Positions 11,727 through 25,503 are shown, counted from the stretch's first letter. The stretch: DNA of 32,000 nucleotides from Faecalicatena fissicatena (GCA_001028025.1 LDAQ01000067.1:128-32127), one strand, 5' to 3'. Made by a program: numbers and translations. Notes: generated by a model not told the origin, from the letters alone.

Positions 11727-13652
11727 TTAGAATTCAAATACAGCAACTCCATATCCCGGCAGAGAATATGCAAAAGAGTATTTTCTGCCATCACAGTCCT
11801 GCTTCTCAGCCTTATAAATCAGAGGTCTCTCCTCACCGCTTCCGCCGTACTGCTCATCATCACCGTTCAATACAAGTTTATACTGCTTCCGCCTCGGCAC
11901 TCCAACCCTGTAATCCGGCCTGTCAACCGGCGTAAAATTGCACACAAACAGCAGATTCTTCTTATTATCCTTTGAATGCCTTACAAAACTGAAAATACTG
12001 CGGAATGTATCATCCTTATTGATCCATTCGAACCCTTCCGGATCCGTATCCAGTTCATAAAGCGCTTTATTCTTTCTATACAAATGAAGCAGATCCCGGT
12101 AGAATCGCTGTATCTGCTGATGCGGTTCCTCCGCCAGCAAAAACCAGTCCAGTTCCCGTTCCTCGCTCCACTCTCTGAGCTGCGCGAAATCCTGCCCCAT
12201 AAAGAGCAGCTTCTTCCCCGGATGACCGATCATAAAGGCATAGGCCGCCTTCAGGTTCGCAAACTTGTCAAACCCTTCTCCCGGCATCTTATTGACCATG
12301 GAGCACTTCAGATGCACCACCTCATCATGGGAAAGTACAAGAATATAATTCTCACTGTAAGCATATTCCATAGAGAATGCCATCTGATAATGTGCGTTCT
12401 TTCTAAACAGCGGATCCAGCTTCATATACTCTGTAAAGTCATGCATCCATCCCATATTCCACTTCAGGCTGAAGCCCAGCCCGTCATCCTCGGGAGCACC
12501 TGTTACCTTCGGCCATGCAGTGGATTCCTCTGCGATCATCATTGCACCATGATTCCTGCCCAGCACGACGGAATTCAAATGTCTGAAAAACGCAATCGCC
12601 TCCAGATTCTGATTGCCTCCAAACTTATTCGCAATCCACTGACCGTCCTGCTTGCCGTAATCCAGATACAGCATGGATGCCACAGCGTCCACTCTCAATC
12701 CATCCACATGATAATGCTCAATCCAGAACAGTGCATTGGCAATCAGGAAATTCTGAACCTCCAGCTTCCCATAATCGAAGATTTTCGTACCCCAGTCCGG
12801 ATGCTCTCCCTTTTTTGGATCTGCGTATTCAAAAACCGGCGTGCCATCAAAATCAGCAAGCCCATGCGCATCTTTTGGAAAATGTGCGGGTACCCAGTCC
12901 AAGATAACACCGATCTTATTCCTGTGGAGATAGTTGATCATATATGCAAAATCTTCCGGTGTACCGTACCTGCAGGTAGGTGCATAGTATCCCGTTACCT
13001 GATATCCCCATGAACCGTCAAAAGGATGTTCTGCCATCCCCATCAGTTCCACATGAGTATATCCCATCTCTTTGACATACTTCACAATTGCCCTGGCAAA
13101 ATCTCTGTAGGTATAAAACCCTTCATCTTCCCTGCCCGGGTGTCTCATCCAGGATCCCAGGTGCACCTCGTATATTGCCAGAGGATTCTCCTTACTGCTC
13201 CATTCCTTCCTGGCTTCCATCCATTCCCCGTCTGTCCATGACAAATGTGAAATATCGGTAATCCTGGAAGCTGTTCCGGGGCGCAGCTCTGCATAATTTG
13301 CAAATGGATCTGCCTTGAAAAGCCGTTTTCCCTGCATCGTTTCTATACAGAACTTATATAAATCCCCGTCCTGAACCCCTGGAATAAAACAGGTATATAT
13401 ACCCTCAGGATCCTGACGTTCCATATAATTCTCTTCGAAATCCCATTCGTTGAAGTCTCCCACAACAGACACGCGCCTTGCATTGGGAGCCCATACTGCA
13501 AAGTAAACTCCGTCTTTTCCCCTTACTGTCACCTTGTGGGCACCAAGCTTCTTATAGATCTCATAATGTGTCCCCTGGCCGAACAGATACTGGTCCAGTT
13601 CCCCAATTTCATAAGGCTTTACTTTCTTTTGTACGGTTTTTTTATTTCCCAT
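11727..13652 (-). CDS. glgB: 1,4-alpha-glucan branching enzyme
   Basis: 641 aa. N-terminal CBM48-like segment (VYFAVWAPNARRVSVVGDFNEWD) and GH13 catalytic motifs (GVILDWVPAHF, GLRVDAVASMLY, AEESTAWP, LSHDEVVH). Confidence 0.95.
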   Translation of the reverse strand: MGNKKTVQKKVKPYEIGELDQYLFGQGTHYEIYKKLGAHKVTVRGKDGVYFAVWAPNARRVSVVGDFNEWDFEENYMERQDPEGIYTCFIPGVQDGDLYKFCIETMQGKRLFKADPFANYAELRPGTASRITDISHLSWTDGEWMEARKEWSSKENPLAIYEVHLGSWMRHPGREDEGFYTYRDFARAIVKYVKEMGYTHVELMGMAEHPFDGSWGYQVTGYYAPTCRYGTPEDFAYMINYLHRNKIGVILDWVPAHFPKDAHGLADFDGTPVFEYADPKKGEHPDWGTKIFDYGKLEVQNFLIANALFWIEHYHVDGLRVDAVASMLYLDYGKQDGQWIANKFGGNQNLEAIAFFRHLNSVVLGRNHGAMMIAEESTAWPKVTGAPEDDGLGFSLKWNMGWMHDFTEYMKLDPLFRKNAHYQMAFSMEYAYSENYILVLSHDEVVHLKCSMVNKMPGEGFDKFANLKAAYAFMIGHPGKKLLFMGQDFAQLREWSEERELDWFLLAEEPHQQIQRFYRDLLHLYRKNKALYELDTDPEGFEWINKDDTFRSIFSFVRHSKDNKKNLLFVCNFTPVDRPDYRVGVPRRKQYKLVLNGDDEQYGGSGEERPLIYKAEKQDCDGRKYSFAYSLPGYGVAVFEF

Positions 13653-13735: not shown

Positions 13736-13767
13736 TAAAATAGACAGACTCCGCAGAATCTGTCTAT
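13736..13767 (-). terminator. Putative intrinsic terminator after the 1220-aa gene
   Basis: ATAGACAGA / TCTGTCTAT stem with a 10-nt loop, followed on the minus strand by a short TTTTA tract. Confidence 0.5.
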
Positions 13768-13778
13768 TACATCACATT

Positions 13779-16700
13779 TTAAATATTAAAGTCCTTTTCC
13801 GAAAGGATAATTCTGTCCGCATCATCCGTATTTTTTCCAAATACACGTTTTACCAATTTCTTTGCTGATGCCTTCTGAGAATGCTCCATAGCCTCATCCA
13901 TGACTTCCTTCACTTCCGCAACTGTCACGGCATGGTCCTCTCTCTGAAGCGCGTCAATCCTGCTGTAGAGTGCAAGAATTCCCATCTCATCGATGCGGTA
14001 TCCATTTTCCTGAGCATATGTCTGGCCGAATGTTACAAGTTCATCATTAATGAAAATCGGTACTTCCAGACGGCTCGTAAACTTCCTGCGGAATTCCCTG
14101 TTGGAGGAAAGCAGTCTGTCCAGAGGCTTCCTCTGCTCTTCAAGAACAACCATCATCTCGCCTGTATCTCTTTCCATCGCCTTATTCAGCCTTGCCACGG
14201 TCTTTTCGTTCAGCTTTCCGGCCTTCTCGATAATCAGAGCGCCGCCGTATAATTTATCAAAAATATCGCTGATCTTTTTCTTATTCAGAGAGTCGCCCGT
14301 TACAATTGCAACCTTTCCCTGCCTGATATTCCTCTGCTTCTGGATTGCTTTGACAACATCCACAGCCAGAACAGTCTTACCATTTCCTTTATTACCAATG
14401 ATAAGGAGGTTGCCAGTTTTGGAAGTGCCGTTCCGGTTCGTGCAGTTATTGTCCTGCTCAAGTACATCCACAAGCTGCTCACTCATACCGCGTACCGGCA
14501 CAAAGTATGAGAATAACTTTTTCTGCTCATCTGTAAGCCCGGCCCGTGTCCCGATACCGCTCTGTGTCTCCAGATCGTATCTGCCATGGACAACAAATCC
14601 CGTGTCTGACATGGAAAGCGCATCTGAGATCTCGTTCAGCGGAAGAGGTGCTGTCTTACCTGTTGCAATCAGCTTTGCCGTTTCCTTACGGCTCAACGGA
14701 GTTGTAGCCGACATGATATCTATATCATCATCTTCATCCGGGATCTCTCTATCGTCAAATTCTTCCACTTGTTCCGGGTTCGGTCGGAACTCTTCCTCGA
14801 AACCAGCTGCTATATCTTCTATATCCTCGGCAGGCTCCTCGGTATCATATTCAGCAAGTTCCTCTTCCTCATACTCATCGTAGTAATCCTGGTCATATTC
14901 CTCTTCATATGATTCTTCCTCGATCTCATCGTAGTCTTCCTCATATGCTTCGCCATCATCATACTCATCTTCCGGATATGTTTCTTCTTCGTATTCCTCT
15001 TCACCATATCCGTCATCATAGAATTCTTCTTCAGCTTCTTCATATTCTGCCGTAAATTCTTCCTCAGCTTCCAGTTGAGACTCTTTTATATCATCGTACT
15101 CTTCATCATAAGATTCTTCTGCATCGCCGTACTCCTCGTCATAAGAATCCTCATACTCGTCTGCATAATCATCTTCATATACTTCTTCGTCTGACGCTTG
15201 AGCATATTCGTCTACTTCCTCCGGAAGGTCATCAATGAAACCTTCCAAATCTTCTTCAATACCATCGTCTGAAGCATCAAGGAACTCCGCGATATCATCA
15301 ATTCTGAGCTGCTGCGTTATTGCCCCCATATTTTCACGAGGTTCTTCATCCCTTCTGGCAGGTGTCCTCACAGTTTTGGGTTCCTCAGGCAGCACTCCTT
15401 CAATCTCGTCAATCAATCTCTGAATATCCGGCGGCAGTATCGGCTCCGCACTCTTTTTCTTTTCTTCCATCTTGTCCTCTTCTGCCGGTTCATCCTGCTC
15501 GTCATGCCCTAATCCCATTAAAATGTCTTCAATGCTGAGCTGACCTTGTATCTGGTCGTCATCCACCGGCTTTTTATTCTCCTGCTTTATATTATCTGCT
15601 GCGGCTGCATCTTCTATTCTCTCTGGTACCTCTTCGAAAGGTTCCTCCTGCAGCTCTTCTTTACTGTCTGCCAACTCTTCTTCCTCTGGCAGTTCCTCTT
15701 CTGATTCTGCTAGAGGTTCTTCCACAAACGTCTCCTCTTCGGAATCCACTATCTGTTCTGCCCCGTTATCTTCCAGCAGTTCTTCCACGTACAATAACTC
15801 TTTTGAATCTTCTGTCACTTCTTCCTCGTACAGTTCTTCTGCGGAATCTTCTGCCGGTTCTTCCTCTGGCAGTTCTTCTTCGATATCTTCCAGGGATTCT
15901 TCCCCGTACAATTCCTCTTCAGTGTCTTCTGCCGGTTCTTCCTCTGACAGTTCTTCTTCGATATCTTCCAGGGATTCTTCCTCGTACAGTTCCTCTTCAG
16001 TGTCTTCTGCTGTTTCTTCCTCCTCTTCTTCCAGCGGCTCCTCGTCCCACAATTCTTCCTCTGTTGCTTCAAGTACTTCATTGAGAAGTTCGCCGTCAAT
16101 ACCTTCTGCCTCTATTGCAGATTCTGAAAATTCCTCTTCCATATCTTCCGGGAGTTCCTCAGAAAATACCTCACCGATAATTTCTTCCACTTCCTCCAGT
16201 GATTCACCTTCCAGAAGTTCTGTCTCTTCCACAGTCACCTCTTCTGCAGGTTCTTCCGCTGTTTCCGGGGACAGTTCTTCATCCGGGATCTCATCCTCAA
16301 GAGGTTCAGCTTTCAACTCTTCCAAATCTTTATCAAATTGAATTTCTCTTTTTTTCTTTCCTGCATATTCATTTACAAGTTCCAGATCTATCACGGATTC
16401 GATTTCTTCTATTGCTACTTCCAGCTCAGGGATCTCTTCTTCGTCAAGCTCTTCCTCTTCCGTTTCTATTTTTTCATCTTTATTTTTAGGCCGCAAAAGA
16501 CTCTGCAGGGCATCCTCCAGCTTCATCCTGCTGCCGATTCCTTTTTGCTCCAGTTTTTGTACGGTCTCATCTACTGGCAAGTCATCCGGCTCACTATCAG
16601 CCTCCGGAGTCTCCTTCGCTTCTTCTGCCAAAGGCTCCTCTTTCAATGGAGTCTCTTCATCTGAATCTTCTTTAGCAGCGGCTTCTGACTGATCCGTATC

Positions 16701-17441
16701 TGTTTCTTCCGGTGAATAATCATCCCCAGAATCATCACCGTCCAGCTCTTCTGCAGCAGCAGCTTTTCTAGCCTGATATTCTGTCAAATCCGGAAGCTCT
16801 TCCGTCTCGGATTCAATCTTCTCATACCTGTGGTCATACTTTTCCTGCTGTGAAGGTGTCAGCTGTTTATACTGCATCTTAAGTTCCATCGCTTTAAATA
16901 CGAACTTTCCTTCACTGAACCAGAGGATCAAATCGTCACACTCCTCCAGACACTCGGCAGTCATACCGGCTTCCTGATATAATCTTGCCAGTTCATATGC
17001 CCATTCTTCAATGTATTCTGCCTTCTTAAACTCCTCCAGCGCTTCAATCTGCTGTTCAACCGGAGCTCTTCTGGCCCTTAATATCTTATATCGCAAAATA
17101 TGCTGGTTTGGATCCTTAGGAGCAACCTGCATAAAATCGTCATAATAGTCGATGGCTTCATCAACATTTCCTGTTTTAAGTGCAAGAGCGCATAAACGAT
17201 AGATAACCTTCCTGCTGCCTTCCGCACGATGATAAGCAATATTCAGAACCTCGTAACTCTTCTGATAGTCCCCGTTTCTCTCATATATGTCACTGACATT
17301 TGTCAGCATAGTGGCATTTCTGACTCTCTTCCAATCGATGGTATCCGCAATCTCGGCCGCTTTATTATATGCACCGCTTTCCATAAGTTCAAGCATCTGT
17401 TCTGTCTTTAACTTATATTCGTACTTGTCCACTGCACTCAC
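13779..17441 (-). CDS. Giant TPR / hyper-acidic low-complexity / CbbX-SpoVK-like AAA+ protein with an atypical Walker B
   Basis: The N-terminal ~200 aa are TPR-like helical repeats. The central ~700 aa are dominated by E/D with internal repeats. The C-terminal ~300 aa align by eye to the SpoVK/CbbX/EccA AAA+ module: Walker A GNKGNGKT (14373-14396), GGALIIEKAG in place of GGVLFIDEA (14223-14237), and NREFRRKFTSRLEVPIF resembling NPGLRSRF. The start may instead be GTG 17432 (GAGGTG 6 nt upstream). Confidence 0.85.
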   Translation of the reverse strand: MSAVDKYEYKLKTEQMLELMESGAYNKAAEIADTIDWKRVRNATMLTNVSDIYERNGDYQKSYEVLNIAYHRAEGSRKVIYRLCALALKTGNVDEAIDYYDDFMQVAPKDPNQHILRYKILRARRAPVEQQIEALEEFKKAEYIEEWAYELARLYQEAGMTAECLEECDDLILWFSEGKFVFKAMELKMQYKQLTPSQQEKYDHRYEKIESETEELPDLTEYQARKAAAAEELDGDDSGDDYSPEETDTDQSEAAAKEDSDEETPLKEEPLAEEAKETPEADSEPDDLPVDETVQKLEQKGIGSRMKLEDALQSLLRPKNKDEKIETEEEELDEEEIPELEVAIEEIESVIDLELVNEYAGKKKREIQFDKDLEELKAEPLEDEIPDEELSPETAEEPAEEVTVEETELLEGESLEEVEEIIGEVFSEELPEDMEEEFSESAIEAEGIDGELLNEVLEATEEELWDEEPLEEEEEETAEDTEEELYEEESLEDIEEELSEEEPAEDTEEELYGEESLEDIEEELPEEEPAEDSAEELYEEEVTEDSKELLYVEELLEDNGAEQIVDSEEETFVEEPLAESEEELPEEEELADSKEELQEEPFEEVPERIEDAAAADNIKQENKKPVDDDQIQGQLSIEDILMGLGHDEQDEPAEEDKMEEKKKSAEPILPPDIQRLIDEIEGVLPEEPKTVRTPARRDEEPRENMGAITQQLRIDDIAEFLDASDDGIEEDLEGFIDDLPEEVDEYAQASDEEVYEDDYADEYEDSYDEEYGDAEESYDEEYDDIKESQLEAEEEFTAEYEEAEEEFYDDGYGEEEYEEETYPEDEYDDGEAYEEDYDEIEEESYEEEYDQDYYDEYEEEELAEYDTEEPAEDIEDIAAGFEEEFRPNPEQVEEFDDREIPDEDDDIDIMSATTPLSRKETAKLIATGKTAPLPLNEISDALSMSDTGFVVHGRYDLETQSGIGTRAGLTDEQKKLFSYFVPVRGMSEQLVDVLEQDNNCTNRNGTSKTGNLLIIGNKGNGKTVLAVDVVKAIQKQRNIRQGKVAIVTGDSLNKKKISDIFDKLYGGALIIEKAGKLNEKTVARLNKAMERDTGEMMVVLEEQRKPLDRLLSSNREFRRKFTSRLEVPIFINDELVTFGQTYAQENGYRIDEMGILALYSRIDALQREDHAVTVAEVKEVMDEAMEHSQKASAKKLVKRVFGKNTDDADRIILSEKDFNI
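15821..16030 (-). repeat. 78-bp (26-aa) in-frame tandem repeat, about 2.7 copies, inside the acidic region
   Basis: Units start at 15821, 15899 and 15977 and are near-identical. They encode ...EELYEEESLEDIEEELSEEEPAEDT... Confidence 0.9.
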
Positions 17442-17520
17442 CTCGTTAATATAATATTATTTATATCTTTTATCCGGCATACGCCCGTTTATACGCACAT
17501 GTGCAGATAATTCTGTCCTT

Positions 17521-17549
17521 AGTTTACCATAAGCACTTCCCAATGTCAA
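17521..17549 (-). promoter_or_regulatory. Candidate sigma-A promoter for the 1220-aa gene
   Basis: Minus strand: TTGACA (17544-17549), 17-nt spacer, TAAACT (17521-17526), about 80 nt upstream of the start codon. Confidence 0.5.
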
Positions 17550-17586
17550 AAAAATGCATCCTCAATTGACATTGAAGATGCATTTT
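17545..17586 (-). terminator. Intrinsic terminator downstream of the decayed ORF
   Basis: A 16-bp stem (17551-17566 / 17571-17586, 1 mismatch that is G-U on the minus strand) with loop TGAC, followed by T7 on the minus strand. Confidence 0.65.
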
Positions 17587-17618
17587 AACACTTATTTAAT
17601 TTTCTCATTCTATATATT

Positions 17619-18160
17619 TTATAAATCGGAGGAATCTTTTGATTTTCGTTCCTGTAAGACCTTTACCGCTTTGTTTATTGATGCTTCAATCTGTTCACTA
17701 AGACTTGCTTACTAAACCTCCTGTCCTTCAATATACAAATCGATTATATAACTAGAATCCAATCGCTCTCGCTCCTGGTACCGATTCATAATAGTAAAGT
17801 ATAACCTTAGGTTATTCATCCTATAGCCTTTCAGTTCCCGCAGTATTGTATAACAATATTCCAGCAGCCTATTAAGCTATTTCTTCTATAACTATGTACA
17901 CTTTTTATGAAATGATATCCTGTTAATGTTTCTTTACACATATCAGGAACTCTGTTATACGTGGTATCTATATTCAATACGTTTGCAAATGTTAAATCTT
18001 TGATTTTAATCCAGTTTCCGAACTCTCCGATTAAATCCTTTTCATTCTTCTTTTGTACTGGATTCCTTTATCTTATATCAGTAAAGGTCTCTTCTTCACA
18101 GGAACTTCCATTTGCCGTACCACTAACATATTGAACTATAAATGACGATACATTGTCCAT
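17619..18160 (-). pseudogene. Decayed AT-rich gene of about 180 codons, broken by in-frame stops and a frameshift
   Basis: Hand translation: AAGGAGG RBS, then MDNVSSFIVQYVSGTANGSSCEEETFTDIR*RNPVQKKNEKDLIGEFGNWIKIKDLTFANVLNIDTTYNRVPDMCKETLTGYHFIKSVHSYRRNSLIGCWNIVIQYCGN*, then after a frame change MNNLRLYFTIMNRYQERERLDSSYIIDLYIEGQEV**ASLSEQIEASINKAVKVLQERKSKDSSDL*. I do not recognise the family. Confidence 0.5.
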
Positions 18161-18406
18161 TGGACCTTTGCCTCCTTGATCAAATATTTTAATCTAATTG
18201 AACATTTTTATTATGTTCGTTCAGATGATTTCCTTTGAGATATCTTTTTCTTTTTTATTTATCTCGTTTGGATTAGTTAGATAATATCATACAAGCTATC
18301 ATTTGTCAACGCACTTTATTCTTTTTTAATAAATAAATATATAATTGTCCAAATTACACATATTTATCAGATTATTTCGAAAGTCAGAATTTTTTGGTAG
18401 TTGGTA

Positions 18407-18681
18407 TGGGGCCGCTGTGTGGAATTGGAACAGGCCTCTCCAGAATGCGGGATCAGGGCGTAAGTGCCGCTTCATCAAAATCGGAGCCGGCATGGTGAAC
18501 ACCGCGGACACTTGCGAGAATTCTGATGAATTCTCACTGCGGGTCTGCTTGTTTACAGGCCTTGTGGGCCTGTAAACAGTTCACATGCCGGCTCCGATTT
18601 TGATGAAGCGGCACTAACACCCCGATCCAGCATCCTGGAGATGCCTGTTCCAATTCCGCACAGCTGGGTGCATCCGGGCGG
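18407..18681 (-). repeat. Long-hairpin element, copy B (inverted orientation, divergent): arms 18413-18499 / 18569-18664
   Basis: Arms of about 90 bp are complementary with about 8 mismatches. The conserved tail CCGCCCGGATGCACCCAGC is present as its reverse complement at 18663-18681. The apex holds GAGAATT-CTGATG-AATTCTC (18516-18535), equivalent to the A/C apical hairpin with compensatory stem changes. Confidence 0.8.
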
Positions 18682-18850
18682 AAAAAATTTGACTATCAGG
18701 GGGGATAATGACGGGGGCAGCGAATTGAGTCGTTTCACTTGAGCGGAATGCCTCCGGCACTCTTATAATAATAATTACTGGGGGCATACCTATATGGGAT
18801 TCCAGCCCAATCCGCCGCTTCCGGATCCTCCCACCGTACGGTTTTCCCTG

Positions 18851-19186
18851 CGCCCGGATGCACCCAGCCAGTCTGGAGCGGGAGTTCTGCCGGCGGGCGG
18901 GGGGATTTTCCGTGCGCTTTCTGAATGCATAGAGAGCACTTACAAACACTTAAGAAAAACCATGCCGGATGGAAAGGATAAAATTTGCTCACCAAAGCAA
19001 ATTTTAAGGTGGCCTGAGCCGCGCAATTCATCAGAATTGCACGGTGAATGCCGCCGGGCCTTTCCATCCGGCATGGTTTTTCTTAAGTGTTTGTTAGTAA
19101 ACGGACCGCATACAGAAAGCGCACGGAAAATCCCCCCGCCCGCCGGCAGAACTCCCGCTCCAGACTGGCGCCCCCTCCTCGTCCCC
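18851..19186 (+). repeat. Long-hairpin element, copy C: arms 18867-18977 / 19059-19169, including a perfect 57-bp inverted repeat
   Basis: 18867-18923 is the exact reverse complement of 19113-19169. It carries the conserved 5' tail, internal loop (18927-18937 / 19099-19105) and apex (19011-19053) shared with copy A. It ends 7 nt from the stop codon of the minus-strand histidine kinase. Confidence 0.9.
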
Positions 19187-19193
19187 TCGCTTC

Positions 19194-20534
19194 CTAAATC
19201 TTAACTTGTACGGTGTAGATCCCCCCTTCATTAAGTACATACAGTTCTCCCCCATGGCGTTCCACCATTTTTCCTACGCTTTTGAGTCCGATCCGGTTGC
19301 TGTCGGTCTCATTTACTTCTTTTTTAACTGTATTTATCAGAGTTATTTTCATCTGCTGTTTTTCTGTTTTGAAGGTCAGACTGACAGGGATTTTCTTGTC
19401 TCCATATTTTAATATATTTGAAAACAGGTTGTTGAATATTCTCTTGAGCATTGTTGCATCGCCGATGACCGTTCCCCGGCTTTCTTCCATTGTCACTTCC
19501 GCCTCAAATCCGGCAAGCTTAAGGAAGTCCAGGTTTTCCTGCAGGATTTCCAGGACGGCCTGTACTGGTACCTTCTCCATGTTAACTTCCTCTGTTTCTT
19601 CAAATACAAGCGCATACTCGAACATTTTATCTGTCATCTCTTTGATGTCACTTGTTTTCTGAAGACATCTGGAAAGATACTCCTCTTCCATTGACTCCGG
19701 TATCTTTTTCAGCTGCAGTACTTCCAGATATCCGTTGAGAATCGTCAGCGGTGTCCTCAGATCATGGGATATGGCCGTGATCAGGTCCTGATTGGCCTTC
19801 CGGCTTTCTTCCTCCTGCCGGATGTTCTCATCCAGCGCAGTACGGAGCTTGTCCAGCTCTTCAGCCAGAATGCCGATTTCATCCTCCCCGCAGTCTGGAA
19901 CCGGATGCTTTAAATCGCCTGAGGCCATCTGCAGCACCTCATCCTTCAGGCAGAGAACCTGTTTCATTCTTCGGTTGATAAACAGCAGATTTATTGCCAG
20001 GAATACACCGACACTGATCAGCACGCTGATTAAAAGGTATGGATAAACCATTTTCATGGCATGATAGGAGTAAATCATCACACTGTATGTTCCATTACGG
20101 AATTCTATTGCGACCTCATCGTAGTTTTCAATTTCTCCTGATGAGACTTTGTATCCTGCATCCAATAGGCTGCCGTATACTACCCGTTCTGTAATCTCAG
20201 GATATGCACCGGCCCTGTATAGGCCTTTTCCTCCGATTTCATAAATATATATTCCGGTATATTCATCCTTGGGAGCAAAAAATGACTTGATTTCTGCCTG
20301 TTCTTCCTTATTTTCTTCCCGTTCCGGGACATCATAATATTTTGCATTCACTTCGAGCTCTTCAATCAGTGCCTGTTCATCCCAGGTGATCGAAGGGAAT
20401 CTGCACAGAAATTTCCATACATTGCCCATGTTTGACCAGACAAACCAAAAAAGAAAAAGACTTACGATCGCAGAAGCCAGCATAAGTATAGAAAGCTTCG
20501 TGCGTATTTTCCAGCTTTTTACTGCGGACTTCAT
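19194..20534 (-). CDS. Sensor histidine kinase (2 TM helices with an extracytoplasmic loop, HAMP, HisKA, HATPase_c)
   Basis: H-box ISHDLRTPLTIL, N-box FNNLFSNILKYG, G-box-like IGLKSVGKMVERHGG. The ATG at 20534 lies 4 nt after the response-regulator stop. The longer track ORF (to 20687) overlaps that gene and was not used. Confidence 0.9.
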   Translation of the reverse strand: MKSAVKSWKIRTKLSILMLASAIVSLFLFWFVWSNMGNVWKFLCRFPSITWDEQALIEELEVNAKYYDVPEREENKEEQAEIKSFFAPKDEYTGIYIYEIGGKGLYRAGAYPEITERVVYGSLLDAGYKVSSGEIENYDEVAIEFRNGTYSVMIYSYHAMKMVYPYLLISVLISVGVFLAINLLFINRRMKQVLCLKDEVLQMASGDLKHPVPDCGEDEIGILAEELDKLRTALDENIRQEEESRKANQDLITAISHDLRTPLTILNGYLEVLQLKKIPESMEEEYLSRCLQKTSDIKEMTDKMFEYALVFEETEEVNMEKVPVQAVLEILQENLDFLKLAGFEAEVTMEESRGTVIGDATMLKRIFNNLFSNILKYGDKKIPVSLTFKTEKQQMKITLINTVKKEVNETDSNRIGLKSVGKMVERHGGELYVLNEGGIYTVQVKI

Positions 20535-20538
20535 TTTC

Positions 20539-21276
20539 TTAATCACAGCGGTACCCCTTTCCCCATATGGTTTTAATGAGTACTGGATTCTTTGCATCTT
20601 TTTCAATCTTTTTACGCAGATTTCTGATATGGACCATAATCGTATTGTTGGCTCCGTAATAGTAAGGTTCGTCCCAGACCGCTTCATACAGTCTTTCCGC
20701 CGAAAATATCTGGTACCGGTATTTTATAAGCAGATGGAGCATGGCATATTCTGTGTCCGTAAGTTCTATCTGCCGGCCTTCTGCATACACCGCCTCCTGC
20801 TCTTCATCTATCTCCAGATCATGGAAATGCAGGCGCTGCTTTTCCTGGGTATTACCGATGCAGATCACTTGTTCCGACACCGTCTCACTGTTCTCTTTCC
20901 CTTTATAAATCTGATACCGCCTGATAAGAGCTTTGGCACGGCTGACAAGCTCGTTGTAGGAAAATGGTTTTACCAGATAATCGTCCCCGCCGCTGGAAAA
21001 TCCCAGCGTTTTATCGCTTTCCTGCCCCTTTGCGCTTAAGAATAAAATGGGTGCATTGCTCAGCTTCCGGATTTCCAGACAGGTCTGGTATCCGTTCATC
21101 CCCGGCATCATGATGTCCAGGATGATCAGGTCAAACATCCCCTGTTCCAGCATTTCCAGAGCCTTCATACCATTCCTTGCTTCTTCGATGTCATACCCTT
21201 CACCCTGAAGTAATATACGGATAATCTCACGGATTTCCGGATTGTCATCTACTATTATAATTCTGGCTGTTTCCAT
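20539..21276 (-). CDS. OmpR/PhoB-family response regulator
   Basis: Receiver domain METARIIIVDDNPEIREI...DLIILDIMMPGMNG, and a winged-helix C-terminus LTDTEYAMLHLL...TIWGKGYRCD. The ATG at 21276 has AAGGGGGA about 9 nt upstream. The 106-codon upstream extension in the track is non-homologous. Confidence 0.9.
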   Translation of the reverse strand: METARIIIVDDNPEIREIIRILLQGEGYDIEEARNGMKALEMLEQGMFDLIILDIMMPGMNGYQTCLEIRKLSNAPILFLSAKGQESDKTLGFSSGGDDYLVKPFSYNELVSRAKALIRRYQIYKGKENSETVSEQVICIGNTQEKQRLHFHDLEIDEEQEAVYAEGRQIELTDTEYAMLHLLIKYRYQIFSAERLYEAVWDEPYYYGANNTIMVHIRNLRKKIEKDAKNPVLIKTIWGKGYRCD

Positions 21277-21563
21277 GTTTCTCATCCCCCTTGTTTCCAG
21301 TTCCATTATACATGATTTCAGAAAAAATATAGTTACTCTTAAGAATTCTTCAGATTCACTTTGGGAATTCTTTAAGAAACGGGTTGTATAATTCACAGAT
21401 GTAAACAATAAAACTGTTAAATTACATCCCCGCGGCAAACTGCGGGGCATCGAATTCACACTACAGCGGAATATGAGGCTTTTATACTGTGTGCTGCCGC
21501 CGGATTTCCATCCAGGCATGCCCGCCTGCCCTGTTATTGCTGCACGTATAAAAAGGAGAGAGT

Positions 21564-24500
21564 ATGACGCACAAAAAGTATTTCTACCCCGCACTACTGG
21601 CCGGGCTCTTCATTATTCTGGTACTTTTGACCATACCGGGGGGATATTTCTATGGTTCTTATACGGACTGGCTGAGCCAGCATGTCCGGCTGGCTGAGAC
21701 AATCCGCAATGCCTGTCTCGAACAGAAGACCCTGGTTCCGGCTTTTCTGCCGCTGGGAGGAGGCAGCAACGGCTATCAGTTTTCTTATTATGGCTACCTG
21801 CGGCCGGATATCCTTATTGGATGCCTGTTCCCGGCTGTCCCTATGGTATATTTACTGATCGGATACATGCTGGCAGGATATTTCTGTTCCGTTATGCTCT
21901 GCTATTACTGGCTTGGGGAACACACTCAGGATAAGGTATCAGCCTTCCTCGGCAGCCTGTTTTTCCTGACGGCGGCTTGTTTTTTTCAGACGCACCGGCA
22001 GATTATGTTTGTAAATTATATGCCGTTTTTGTTGCTTGCGCTTATATGCGTTAAGAAAAAGCGCTTCCAGTTTCTTCCTCTTTGCATGCTTATGATTTAC
22101 CTCAATAGCTTTTACTACTCCATTGCCTGCCTGGCAGTGATTGGCTGGTACTGGCTCAGACAGGAAGGGAAGGGGTTCTGGAAGCATGGATTTCTTCAAT
22201 ATCTGAAAACTGCATTTCTTTCCATTGGCATGGCTGCGCTTCTTCTTGTTCCAACCGCGCTGGTCATTCTGGAGCACCGCCGTTCTTCAGACAAACTGAA
22301 CCTTTTGGAGATACTGGGGGCCAATGCGGATATGCACTCCCTTCTGTACAGTCCGTATGGAATGGGACTGACTGCCATATGCCTTTATCTGCTGCTCCTT
22401 GGCCTCTGCCATAAAAAATACCGGATGGACAGTGCCATGCTGCTCTTTGTTTCTTTCTGCGGCGCTGCTGCATGGATACTCAACGGGACTTTATATGCCC
22501 GGGCAAAGATTTTGATTCCATTTGTTCCGCTTGTTGTCCTTCAATGTGCGAAACTATTAAATGAACTGCGGCAGAAAAACCTTGACTGGAAGCTCTGGCC
22601 CTGTTTCATTGCAGCCGTATTTTTGTACTTTTTCCGTACTAAAAGTACATTTCCATGGATGGCTGCCGATCTTGGGATTCTGATATTTATTGTTCTGATT
22701 CATAAGGTTAGATGTAAAGAATCCTTACTGCAGGCCAGATATACCGTCAGCCGGATACTGCTGTGCATTATGCCCTGTATCCTGTTTTATCAGACGATGC
22801 AGAGGGAACAATTTGTGAGAAAAGAAGATGTTTTCACAAAAGACCTGGCTCTGGACAGTAATCTGTTAAAAAACGGATCTCCGCTCTACCGCTGCGATAA
22901 CCTGACTAACATACTGAATACAGGTAATCTCGTGTTAGATGGTAATGAACAGAAAAGTGCCATGTATTCTTCTATTTCTAATGAAGGATACTCAAGTTTT
23001 TACTATGATACGCTGCTGTCCCCCGTTCAGATTAATAACCGGCTGGCGATTCTGCCCTCTTCCAACCCGTTTTTGCTGAATTTTCTGGGGGTGCGTTATA
23101 TCGAAACAACCCAGGGCAATGTTCCTGCCGGATACCAGACTGTTAAAACAGCTGATACAGAGGATGAAAGCACAAACGATGGCAGAAATAACGACACCCG
23201 GCATGTACTGGCTGAAAACAGGAGTGTTCTGCCTGTTGCCTATACGACCAGTTCCTGCATGAGTGAATCACAGTTTGAGAAGCTGGGAGCATATGATCGG
23301 CTTGATGCTATAACGAGATTTACGATTATACCGGAAGGAGACACTGTCAGTGACCCGGATGCTGTTAATGATAAATCTGAAGCAGGAAACAGCACTTCCG
23401 ATCCCTTGGCAGCTTCTGTGGGCAATACCCGTGGGGAACACTCCGTCAATAATTCCACTGATACGGAATCTAAAATGAAGGATTATGCACCTGCATTTGA
23501 AGATCTTCAACTGCCGGACACTGTTCAGGCCGAAAGGACGGATGAAGGATGGCTGCTGAATGTTAAGAAGGATACCAATATTACACTAAATCTGAACCAG
23601 AGCTTGAAGGATCAGATTCTGCTACTGGATTTTGAAGTTGAGAATCTGGAGAAACACGCAGTTGTTATTGATATTAATCAGATGAGAAATAAACTGTCCG
23701 GTCCGAGCGCCCCTTACCCCAATGGGAACAATACTTTTCATTATCAGTTTTCCAGTTCTTCTCAAAACGGGATCGATACTCTTAATATTACATTTTCCAA
23801 GGGGAAATATCTTTTAAAGAATATCAACTGGCATACCTATGACATGCAGAATCTTTTTGAAAAGCAATATACAGCGGTAGAAAATCAGACGACTGAAACC
23901 GGTGAAATATTATCCTGCCAGGCCACTCTTGATGAGGACGGTTATTTTGTAACCTCGATTCCGGTACAAAATGGTATGGAAATATGGGTTGATGGGAAAA
24001 ATGTTCCTATCCTCACCCTGAACCAGGCCTTCGCCGGAGTTCAGCTGACGAAAGGCGTTCATGATATCAGAATCCGCTTCCATGCACCGGGACAGATGGT
24101 CGGGTTTATAATTACTATCATCAGCTTCCTGATGTATCTTCTTTATGCTCTGCGGGTTCCAGTACTGTTTCTTCTGCGTATGCTGAAATTGAAGAAAGAA
24201 CTTGTACTCTACTGCCTGAGTGGAGGTGCAACAACATTTGTAAACTATTTAATTTACTTTATACTTTTAAAAACACATATGGAATATCTTGCTGCCAATA
24301 CATTAGCATGGGCAGGAGCCGTTGTCACAGCCTATCTGCTCAACCGCAGGCTGGTATTTCACTCACGTAAACATATCCTGCAGGAGTTCTGTTCCTTTGT
24401 TTTTCTCAGATTTCTGACCTTGCTGGCGGAAAATATCCTTCTGTGGATTGCGGTAGATTCTCTTGGCATACTGCCTCTGCCCTCAAAAATTATGGTAAGT

Positions 24501-24575
24501 GTAATAACCGTGTTATCTAATTATGTACTTTGCAAATATAAGATTTTCCATAAGGAGGAAGTAAAACATGGATAA
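21564..24575 (+). CDS. YfhO-like polytopic GT-C-type membrane protein fused to a C-terminal GtrA-like domain
   Basis: The N-terminal ~400 aa have many TM helices and a YfhO-like profile. A large extracytoplasmic middle region and one further TM follow. The last ~130 aa (nt ~24177-24575) look like the GtrA family (LSGGATTFVNYLIYFILL...AYLLNRRLVFH...VLSNYVLCKYKIF). Confidence 0.75.
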   Translation: MTHKKYFYPALLAGLFIILVLLTIPGGYFYGSYTDWLSQHVRLAETIRNACLEQKTLVPAFLPLGGGSNGYQFSYYGYLRPDILIGCLFPAVPMVYLLIGYMLAGYFCSVMLCYYWLGEHTQDKVSAFLGSLFFLTAACFFQTHRQIMFVNYMPFLLLALICVKKKRFQFLPLCMLMIYLNSFYYSIACLAVIGWYWLRQEGKGFWKHGFLQYLKTAFLSIGMAALLLVPTALVILEHRRSSDKLNLLEILGANADMHSLLYSPYGMGLTAICLYLLLLGLCHKKYRMDSAMLLFVSFCGAAAWILNGTLYARAKILIPFVPLVVLQCAKLLNELRQKNLDWKLWPCFIAAVFLYFFRTKSTFPWMAADLGILIFIVLIHKVRCKESLLQARYTVSRILLCIMPCILFYQTMQREQFVRKEDVFTKDLALDSNLLKNGSPLYRCDNLTNILNTGNLVLDGNEQKSAMYSSISNEGYSSFYYDTLLSPVQINNRLAILPSSNPFLLNFLGVRYIETTQGNVPAGYQTVKTADTEDESTNDGRNNDTRHVLAENRSVLPVAYTTSSCMSESQFEKLGAYDRLDAITRFTIIPEGDTVSDPDAVNDKSEAGNSTSDPLAASVGNTRGEHSVNNSTDTESKMKDYAPAFEDLQLPDTVQAERTDEGWLLNVKKDTNITLNLNQSLKDQILLLDFEVENLEKHAVVIDINQMRNKLSGPSAPYPNGNNTFHYQFSSSSQNGIDTLNITFSKGKYLLKNINWHTYDMQNLFEKQYTAVENQTTETGEILSCQATLDEDGYFVTSIPVQNGMEIWVDGKNVPILTLNQAFAGVQLTKGVHDIRIRFHAPGQMVGFIITIISFLMYLLYALRVPVLFLLRMLKLKKELVLYCLSGGATTFVNYLIYFILLKTHMEYLAANTLAWAGAVVTAYLLNRRLVFHSRKHILQEFCSFVFLRFLTLLAENILLWIAVDSLGILPLPSKIMVSVITVLSNYVLCKYKIFHKEEVKHG

Positions 24576-25503
24576 AATCAGCATTATCGTGCCCTGCTAC
24601 AATGAAGAACAGGTACTTACCATGTTCTATCAGGAGACCGGGAAGGCAGTCGGGGAAATCGAGACTGCAGAATGTGAGTTTATTTTTATTGATGACGGAA
24701 GCCGGGATCATACACCGGAAATACTGCAAAGTCTGGTGTACCGGGACAAGCGCTGTAAATACCTGTCATTCTCCCGGAATTTCGGCAAGGAAGCCGCAAT
24801 GTATGCCGGGCTGCAGTATGCTTCCGGAGATTACTGTGTATTTATGGACGCGGATCTCCAGCACCCTCCTTCACTATTAAAGGAAATGTACAGTGTCCTC
24901 AAGAATGAGGGTTATGACTGCTGTGCCGGTTTCCGGGAAGACCGCCAGGGTGAAGGGAGGGTCAGAAGCTTTCTTTCCCGCGGATTTTATAAGATCATCA
25001 ATAGGATCTGTGATATAAACATAAGTGACGGCGCTGGGGATTTCCGCATGATGAACCGGGCAATGGCAGACTCTATACTGGAATTCAAGGAATATAACAG
25101 ATACATGAAGGGGATTTTTTCTTTCATCGGATTTGACACAAAGTGGATCCCATTCCGTAATGTGGAGCGTGCCGCGGGGAACAGCAAGTGGGGCTTCAAA
25201 AGCCTGTTCAAGTATGCTCTGGATGGAATCTTCTCTTTCTCAACCGCCCCGGTCACATTGGCAGGTACAACTGGCAGCCTTCTGCTGGCGGCCGCACTGA
25301 TTCTGGGTATTGTTACGGCTGTACGTACATTTATCTTAGGCTACGCAGCCAGTGGAATCATGCCTGTGGTGCTACTCATACTGGGACTAAATGGGATACA
25401 GCTGTTGTTTATATCCATATTGGGGCAGTATATCTCAAAAGATTACATGGAAACAAAAAAGCGTCCTCTTTATATCGTTAAGAGGGAAGAAGGGTTTCGG
25501 TAG
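24568..25503 (+). CDS. GT2 polyprenyl-phosphate glycosyltransferase (GtrB/CsbB-like) with 2 C-terminal TM helices
   Basis: ISIIVPCYNEE, FIDDGSRDHT and DADLQHPP motifs, plus two C-terminal hydrophobic helices. An ATGGATAA overlap with the preceding gene suggests translational coupling. Confidence 0.9.
   Translation: MDKISIIVPCYNEEQVLTMFYQETGKAVGEIETAECEFIFIDDGSRDHTPEILQSLVYRDKRCKYLSFSRNFGKEAAMYAGLQYASGDYCVFMDADLQHPPSLLKEMYSVLKNEGYDCCAGFREDRQGEGRVRSFLSRGFYKIINRICDINISDGAGDFRMMNRAMADSILEFKEYNRYMKGIFSFIGFDTKWIPFRNVERAAGNSKWGFKSLFKYALDGIFSFSTAPVTLAGTTGSLLLAAALILGIVTAVRTFILGYAASGIMPVVLLILGLNGIQLLFISILGQYISKDYMETKKRPLYIVKREEGFR

Follow-up and report, generated by a model that had tools for sequence, protein, structure and literature searches.

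CbbX, EccA and SpoVK, which share one higher-order clade of classical AAA+ ATPases, are the closest described systems to a giant protein encoded by Faecalicatena fissicatena. The gene is a single open reading frame (ORF) of 1220 codons on the minus strand of the 32,000-nucleotide stretch of DNA analyzed here (GCA_001028025.1, LDAQ01000067.1:128-32127; hereafter the window), at positions 13779-17441 counted from the first letter of the window. All features of the gene described below lie on that strand, and residues are numbered throughout from the 1220-aa ORF. In EccA, a tetratricopeptide repeat (TPR) domain and an AAA+ domain are joined without a long disordered linker, and the canonical motor motifs are kept. 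Degenerate AAA+ subunits are found in the origin recognition complex (ORC) and in clamp loaders, where the P-loop is kept, catalytic or trans-acting residues are missing, and nucleotide-dependent assembly takes place without mechanical work. Members of the SpoVK-EccA-CbbX clade are chaperones dedicated to a narrow range of clients, and their N-terminal recruiting domains vary (PMC11513918). The SpoVK of Bacillus subtilis promotes MurG function and is an active ATPase, and mutants in Walker A, Walker B or the Arg finger abolish its function (PMC11513918). The clade is told apart from FtsH by a GY signature, a sensor-2 Arg and an Asn placed four residues ahead of the first Arg finger, and a bihelical hairpin before Walker A is common to both (PMC11513918).

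The Faecalicatena protein connects an N-terminal TPR domain, through a poly-acidic linker of some 750 residues, to a C-terminal CbbX-like AAA+ module in which the nucleotide pocket is conserved and the motor elements are not. With its TPR head and giant disordered tether, it represents a degenerate side branch of the SpoVK/CbbX/EccA clade, widespread and unannotated, and is not a categorically new system. At slightly better than even odds (a probability of about 0.55), we propose that the protein is a motor-less descendant of this clade, in which the module serves as a nucleotide switch, probably acting through self-assembly, the TPR domain binds a client or peptide, and the linker is a motif-carrying tether. 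An initial annotation of the window, made from the sequence alone, had stated that no characterized protein with a TPR-linker-AAA+ organization was known, and none was found in the literature, in PMC11513918 or among the source names of database entries.

The C-terminal AAA+ module

The module comprises residues 959-1220 (262 aa; 13782-14567) and is made up of an alpha/beta core and a helical lid. Its three best matches in NCBIfam are CbbX (E = 1e-11), EccA (7.5e-9) and SpoVK (1e-6). The corresponding bit scores are 44.7 against an equivalog cut-off of 459 for CbbX (TIGR02880), 31-35 against 466.65 for EccA (TIGR03922) and 28 against 423 for SpoVK (TIGR02881). With scores roughly ten-fold below the cut-offs, the module is a distant offshoot and a member of none of the three families, and there is no Pfam family for it. 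Searches of the PDB gave CbbX and EccA1 as the sole specific relatives, both with the single sequence (1.2e-7 and 7.6e-5) and with a family profile (4e-13 and 3.9e-7). Matches to RecA in the profile search were disregarded, being confined to the P-loop and summed over concatemer constructs.

The predicted structure is in keeping with this ancestry. The AlphaFold model of the module has a mean predicted local distance difference test score (pLDDT) of 85 and a predicted template modeling score (pTM) of 0.81, and its top four Foldseek matches are all CbbX (E ~1e-11). Two modeled helices (module residues 13-18 and 28-40) lie ahead of strand 1, and a bihelical hairpin before Walker A is plausible. 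Descent from the SpoVK/CbbX/EccA clade of classical AAA+ proteins is thus the best-supported reading of the profile and model comparisons. The initial annotation had assigned a TPR N-terminus and a CbbX/SpoVK-type AAA+ C-terminus, and Pfam, NCBIfam, PDB and fold matches all bear out this assignment.

CbbX, the activase of red-type Rubisco (PDB 3SYL, 3ZUH), is the closest relative of the module by both sequence and fold. The order of AAA+ core and helical lid is the same, and the alignment matches up Walker A, the GG before Walker B and the P-x-F that follows strand 5; the two share 18-19% identity. CbbX has neither the TPR domain nor the giant linker, and the Faecalicatena gene is not found in a Rubisco context. 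SpoVK belongs to the same higher-order clade as the module, judging by the best matches, but has a short, beta-rich N-terminus in place of the TPR domain and linker.

The state of the AAA+ motifs was scored in an alignment of the last 270 residues of 138 family sequences, with the CbbX alignments as reference (motif counts in the following are out of these 138). Walker A, GNKGNGKT (residues 1016-1023; 14373-14396), fits the GxxGxGK[ST] consensus and is retained, as had been pointed out initially. It is essentially invariant across the family, with G1016 and G1021 in all 138, K1022 in 136 and T1023 in 132. Walker B reads LIIEKA (residues 1069-1074; 14220-14237) and aligns to LFIDEA of CbbX, which places E1072 at the Asp and K1073 at the catalytic Glu. 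The replacement of the catalytic Glu by Lys, to which the initial annotation had drawn attention, is real in this protein but does not extend to the family. Position 1073 is Lys in 56, Arg in 26, Ser in 14, Asn in 10, and Gln, His, Glu or Gly in 7 each, and the alignment indicates that it is unconstrained. The conserved changes linked to Walker B are found elsewhere. The first acid, position 1072, is Glu in 133 sequences and Asp in three, and a pair of acidic residues occupies the end of strand beta-4, where L-E-E (residues 1100-1102; 14136-14144) is aligned to L-A-G of CbbX. In this region L-A-G-Y in CbbX corresponds to L-E-E-Q, and the sensor-1 A-G-Y signature is replaced family-wide by E-[DE]-x, with E1101 in all 138 sequences, Asp (119) or Glu (14) at position 1102 and Thr, Glu, Gln or Asp, never Tyr, at position 1103.

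Several elements of an AAA+ motor are missing. By alignment, both pore-loop regions are deleted. A seven-residue gap lies opposite the aromatic pore-loop-1 motif of CbbX (VGQYIGHT) in single-sequence and profile alignments alike, and nine residues are deleted after Walker B. The site of the first deletion, SLNKKK (residues 1051-1056; 14274-14291), carries an invariant L-N-x-K (L94, N95 and K97 of alignment A1). The second region of homology survives as FRRKF (residues 1117-1121; 14079-14093), in which R1118 and K1120 correspond to R192 and R194 of CbbX. The former position is Ala in 82 family members, Arg in 19 and Lys in 12, and the latter is Lys in 121 and Arg in eight. At sensor-2, N-A-R-S-I-R of CbbX is matched by T-V-A-E-V-K, with Ala at the first Arg and Lys1178 (128 of 138) at the second, and the sensor-2 Arg is therefore lost. 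Of the features that distinguish the clade from FtsH, two (the GY signature and the sensor-2 Arg) are missing from the protein, and the third, the Asn-Arg pair, is kept as N1114 and R1118. Only 54 members of the wider family keep N1114 and only 19 keep R1118; with the pair lost in most of the family, the present clade retains an ancestral state.

A conserved pocket combined with the loss of pore loops, catalytic Glu, arginine fingers and sensor-2 Arg points to a switch or assembly unit and not to a threading motor. The alternative is an active, non-canonical AAA+ chaperone or activase, in which the catalytic acid has moved to Glu1101/Asp1102, K1120 works as the finger, and a dedicated client recruited by the TPR domain is remodeled, with CbbX and Rubisco, SpoVK and MurG, and EccA and ESX substrates as precedents. 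The client could be the glycogen-branching enzyme GlgB, the gene for which is adjacent (see below). The invariance of E1101, the acid at position 1102 in 133 sequences and the prevalence of K1120 and K1178 would all suit such an enzyme, and the strict conservation of Walker A and E1072 is an unusual constraint for a purely structural pseudo-enzyme; the known members of the clade are, moreover, dedicated chaperones (PMC11513918). Deletion of both pore-loop regions makes threading unlikely, however, and the residue equivalent to R192 is Ala in most members. We regard an active chaperone as unlikely on balance, though a prospect to be taken seriously.

The module ends in a nearly invariant tail, L-x-E-x-D-F (LSEKDF, residues 1213-1218; 13788-13805), two residues from the C-terminus, with the Leu in 133, the Glu in 138, the Asp in 129 and the Phe in 137 of the aligned sequences. 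TPR domains frequently recognize acidic C-terminal peptides, and a head-to-tail or autoinhibitory contact between the tail and the protein's own TPR domain is conceivable, although the model places the tail on the module itself, as a short strand and a helix.

The TPR domain and the linker

The N-terminal domain (residues 4-205; 16827-17432) is recognized as a TPR domain by Pfam, by its AlphaFold model and by fold matches. Scanned alone, it scores 34.1 bits with TPR_19 (cut-off 25), 27.4 with TPR_2 (cut-off 27) and 27.6 with TPR_14 (cut-off 23.5). The model has 12 helices at a pLDDT of 96, and its best fold matches are a consensus TPR protein, OGT and MamA (E 5e-7 to 1e-5). The TPR domain of EccA was absent among the top 50 fold matches, and the domain is generic, without specific kinship to that of EccA. 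It is 37-88% identical in 98 of 146 family representatives. An invariant C164-x3-C168-D169 (CLEECD, residues 164-169; 16935-16952) lies within one TPR helix and is present in all 18 diverse members that were aligned. A Cys-x3-Cys-Asp arrangement of this kind is not typical of TPR repeats, and a metal or redox site is one possibility.

The initial annotation had likened the protein to EccA, and the architecture can indeed be read as that of a Firmicutes type VII secretion chaperone akin to EccA. The order of domains, TPR followed by a CbbX-like AAA+ module, is the same in EccA1 (PDB 9LUR), a mycobacterial ESX-1 chaperone and the second-best solved relative of the module, and the T7SS_EccA profile is matched at the E-value of 7.5e-9 given above. 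The likeness does not go beyond this order. The module reaches ~35 bits against a cut-off of 467, CbbX is closer, the two TPR domains lack specific kinship, and about 750 disordered residues intervene in the Faecalicatena protein. Motor elements that EccA retains are missing. No EssC/EccC-type gene, nor any other type VII secretion gene, was found among the larger genes scanned in the window or the called genes of the distant loci, a search that did not extend to small ORFs of WXG100 size. We consider a role as a secretion chaperone of this type very unlikely.

Between the two conserved domains lies a disordered poly-acidic linker (residues 206-958; 14568-16826) with 318 Asp/Glu (D/E) against 45 Lys/Arg (K/R) residues; for residues 206-925, the composition is 43.5% D/E and 6% K/R. 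Period-78 detection revealed tandem repeats of a 78-nt, 26-aa unit, roughly EDTEEELYEEESLEDIEEELSEEEPA, in about three copies at 15819-16061 (2.6-3.1 copies, 82-90% matches), and the linker also holds a Tyr/Asp/Glu-rich stretch. No Pfam domain was found in the linker, either here or in the long, less acidic linkers of eight distant members, and no alignable conservation beyond faint islands is seen across linkers.

At least one short linear motif recurs in the linkers of the family. The family version, QIxGQ[ML]SIE[DE][IV]LxxWEKTK, is present here as a partly degenerate copy, DDDQIQGQLSIEDILMG (residues 627-643; 15513-15563). Its core was found in 28 of 96 linkers and a variant followed by Trp in 47 of 96, where shuffled linkers would give 0.1-0.2. 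Length and composition vary widely. Among 70 close relatives the linker measures 480-929 aa and is always 33-44% D/E, and two strains of F. contorta differ in length by more than 200 aa. In the 98 representatives with both TPR domain and module, the region between them spans 83-925 aa and 15-67% D/E, and the linkers of distant members are rich in Gln, Gly, Ala, Pro and Ser and in repeats, with 15-25% D/E. The extreme acidity and the repeats described in the initial annotation are thus found in this protein, but sequence comparison places the acidity in this clade and not in the family at large.

The functional parallel, if any, would be with the degenerate subunits of ORC and clamp loaders. 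These belong to other AAA+ clades, none of them has a TPR domain and a giant polyanionic tether, and the likeness would be one of function only.

Distribution of the family

An exhaustive HMMER search with the C-terminal module against 1.84 billion cluster representatives returned at least 682 clusters at E < 1e-30. Among 146 representatives examined, 98 begin with the TPR domain at residue 1 and end in the module. A reference-genome scan seeded with a five-sequence C-terminal alignment yielded only close relatives (80), of which Faecalicatena contorta was the best match (97-98% identity in the module). Two short peptide patterns alone match 326 species. A profile search of a set of 5.8 billion proteins, which returned mainly fragments of 200-540 aa with few names, confirmed the taxonomy and did not extend the family. 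All named members belong to the Lachnospiraceae (Faecalicatena, Mediterraneibacter, Muricomes, Schaedlerella, Hespellia, Coprococcus/Allocoprococcus and [Clostridium] scindens) or to unclassified Clostridiales/Eubacteriales, and none comes from the Bacilli.

Database names are generic (hypothetical protein, TPR repeat protein, AAA family ATPase, P-loop NTPase, NB-ARC, Cdc6-like), and no literature on the family was found. Most deposited entries are fragments, either N-terminal (~200-350 aa) or C-terminal (~260-540 aa), and many are marked 'partial', because short-read assemblies break in the repetitive linker. As a result, automatic annotation rarely sees the full architecture. The absence of a known function is in agreement with the initial annotation, but the family is far from rare: it is very common in the Lachnospiraceae and merely unannotated.

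The extreme low complexity of the linker and the many fragmentary entries could also be taken as signs of a chance ORF, a pseudogene or an assembly artefact without function. This reading is refuted by the comparative data and has a negligible likelihood. Of 76 loci with both conserved ends, 70 have them joined by a single uninterrupted frame, and runs of N from assembly gaps occur in five of the other six; the size of the family speaks for itself, and the fragments are explained by assembly breaks. The signals for transcription and translation described next are conserved as well.

Start codon, promoter and terminator

The single minus-strand ORF had been correctly located, but its start probably lies further downstream. 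The GTG at 17441 falls within a Shine-Dalgarno-like GAGGTGA (17444-17438), and a second GTG (17432-17430) follows this element by 5 nt. Alignment of homologue N-termini (MDKYEY...) begins at residue 4, and on both grounds the GTG at 17432 is most likely the true start, giving a protein of 1217 aa (ribosome binding site and start codon together, 17430-17444). No signal peptide or membrane segment was apparent on inspection of the sequence by eye, no predictor having been run.

The promoter and the terminator reported initially were both located. The former is of sigma-70 type, TTGACA-17 nt-TAAACT (17521-17549), matches the consensus at 10 of 12 positions and carries a TG two bases ahead of its -10 hexamer. 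In ~50 of 66 related loci, a promoter with the same hexamers, spacing and TG is found 70-120 nt before the start codon. The 88-nt leader between promoter and start codon (17433-17520) falls within the 70-120 nt seen in relatives and gave no hit in the Rfam scan. An intrinsic terminator, TAGACAGATTC-TGCG-GAGTCTGTCTA followed by TTTT (13737-13766), lies just past the stop codon and folds into a hairpin of -14.2 kcal/mol. A hairpin and T-run occur at the same place in most relatives, with different stem sequences. With its own conserved promoter and terminator, the gene is a self-contained transcription unit in this clade.

These signals bear on a possible function in sporulation, either as a specific SpoVK paralogue or as an acidic, SpoVID-like spore-coat morphogenetic protein. 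Many Lachnospiraceae sporulate, the module has weak similarity to SpoVK (1e-6), and SpoVID is also highly acidic. The conserved promoter is of the vegetative sigma-70 type with an extended -10 and is not obviously of the sigma-E or sigma-K type, the Pfam scan found no LysM or SPOCS domain, and the acidity is not conserved in the wider family. The neighbors (metG, glgB and the V-ATPase genes) are housekeeping genes, and the Bacilli are missing from the named members. A sporulation-specific role is improbable in the light of these observations.

Genomic context

The gene for the glycogen-branching enzyme, glgB (11727-13652), lies downstream on the same strand, followed by a V-type ATPase operon and an AraC regulator. 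Upstream of the TPR/AAA+ gene, a 1.75-kb non-coding stretch is followed by a two-component system, YfhO/GtrA, GT2, metG, niaR and nadCBA. Examination of gene neighbors, which the initial annotation had proposed, identified glgB as the recurrent partner. Of 80 close loci, 62 have it downstream in the same orientation, and it lies directly downstream in four of seven contexts of members with 38-46% identity, at a distance of 20-72 bp in three and 405 bp in the fourth. Glycogen or alpha-glucan synthesis is the leading candidate process because glgB recurs directly downstream, although gene order is only suggestive of function.

No recurrent secretion, sporulation or defense genes were seen among the called genes of the distant loci. 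A role in anti-phage defense was considered and rejected: in PADLOC-DB the module has only P-loop-level matches (best 1e-5, to a partial profile) and the TPR domain none, which amounts to noise.

Across the distant loci L081, L085, L087 and L090, the order that recurs on the same strand is an aconitase-family gene (~761-768 aa), an AI-2E-type permease gene, the TPR/AAA+ family gene and the gene for GlgB. A DUF6240 gene (1042-1304 aa) comes after GlgB in two distant loci, and flagellin and FliS follow in L090.

Proposed role

The protein may function as a constitutively expressed cytoplasmic adaptor or scaffold. The module would bind ATP or ADP, with slow or no hydrolysis, and its nucleotide state would act as a switch that most plausibly drives self-assembly, as in CbbX. 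The TPR domain would be the client- or peptide-binding end, and the linker a disordered tether of variable length, strongly polyanionic in this clade and carrying at least one conserved short docking motif. A switch or scaffold in place of a motor had been suggested initially from the retained Walker A and the Lys in Walker B. The pore-loop deletions and the losses at the Arg finger and sensor-2 now provide a firmer footing for the idea that the module is not a motor, whereas we infer the loss of hydrolysis only indirectly, and the acidic pair on beta-4 would allow catalysis to have been relocated.

Several points count against this proposal. A dead domain would not be expected to keep its nucleotide pocket so well conserved, and the invariant Glu-Asp pair could, with the conserved Lys in place of the finger, make up a non-canonical catalytic site with real ATPase activity. 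As to the glycogen connection, three of the seven distant contexts are without glgB, the promoter and terminator of the gene in this clade mean that it is not co-transcribed with glgB, and synteny within one bacterial family may reflect inherited gene order and not functional coupling.

A more elaborate arrangement can be envisaged, in which the AAA+-derived module forms a ring, as CbbX does when it binds its ligand, bearing six polyanionic arms of ~750 residues, each tipped by a TPR domain. Such a nucleotide-gated hub would be a star-shaped organizer of a cytoplasmic compartment or condensate, most likely of glycogen granules with GlgB. The linker motif (QIxGQxSIEDIL) or the L-x-E-x-D-F tail would dock in the TPR groove and provide cross-links or autoinhibition. 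We consider this improbable, but if true, the protein would be the first scaffold of glycogen granules in bacteria to be built from a pseudo-AAA+ ATPase.

Returning to the simpler proposal of a motor-less switch on a tether, the family is a clean case in nature of a classical AAA+ domain that has lost its motor parts with its nucleotide pocket still conserved, and a candidate for either a pseudo-motor switch or a relocated-acid ATPase. The Lachnospiraceae are among the most abundant gut bacteria of humans and animals, and the gene is found in hundreds of their species, still nameless. The linkage to glgB is a testable entry into the organization of glycogen storage, a trait relevant to gut persistence.

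Other features of the window

Scans against Rfam and for tRNAs gave no hit anywhere in the window, the ORF-poor gap upstream of the gene (17442-19193) included. Large inverted repeats lie in this gap at 18414-18664 and 18867-19169: one with 81-nt arms of 91% complementarity, and two adjacent pairs of 62 and 40 nt (98%), which together make up a palindrome of ~300 nt. These repeats could be an element resembling a miniature inverted-repeat transposable element (MITE), or a structured element, by the end of the histidine-kinase gene.

The block at 19194-25503, between metG and the TPR/AAA+ gene, encodes a histidine kinase, a response regulator, a YfhO-GtrA fusion and a GT2 glycosyltransferase. 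An F. contorta strain (L004), locus L002 and Muricomes (L034) lack it at this position; many Mediterraneibacter loci have it. The TPR/AAA+ gene comes immediately after metG in other strains, which identifies the block as an insertion, and it has the appearance of a cell-envelope glycosylation island that is mobile or prone to indels.

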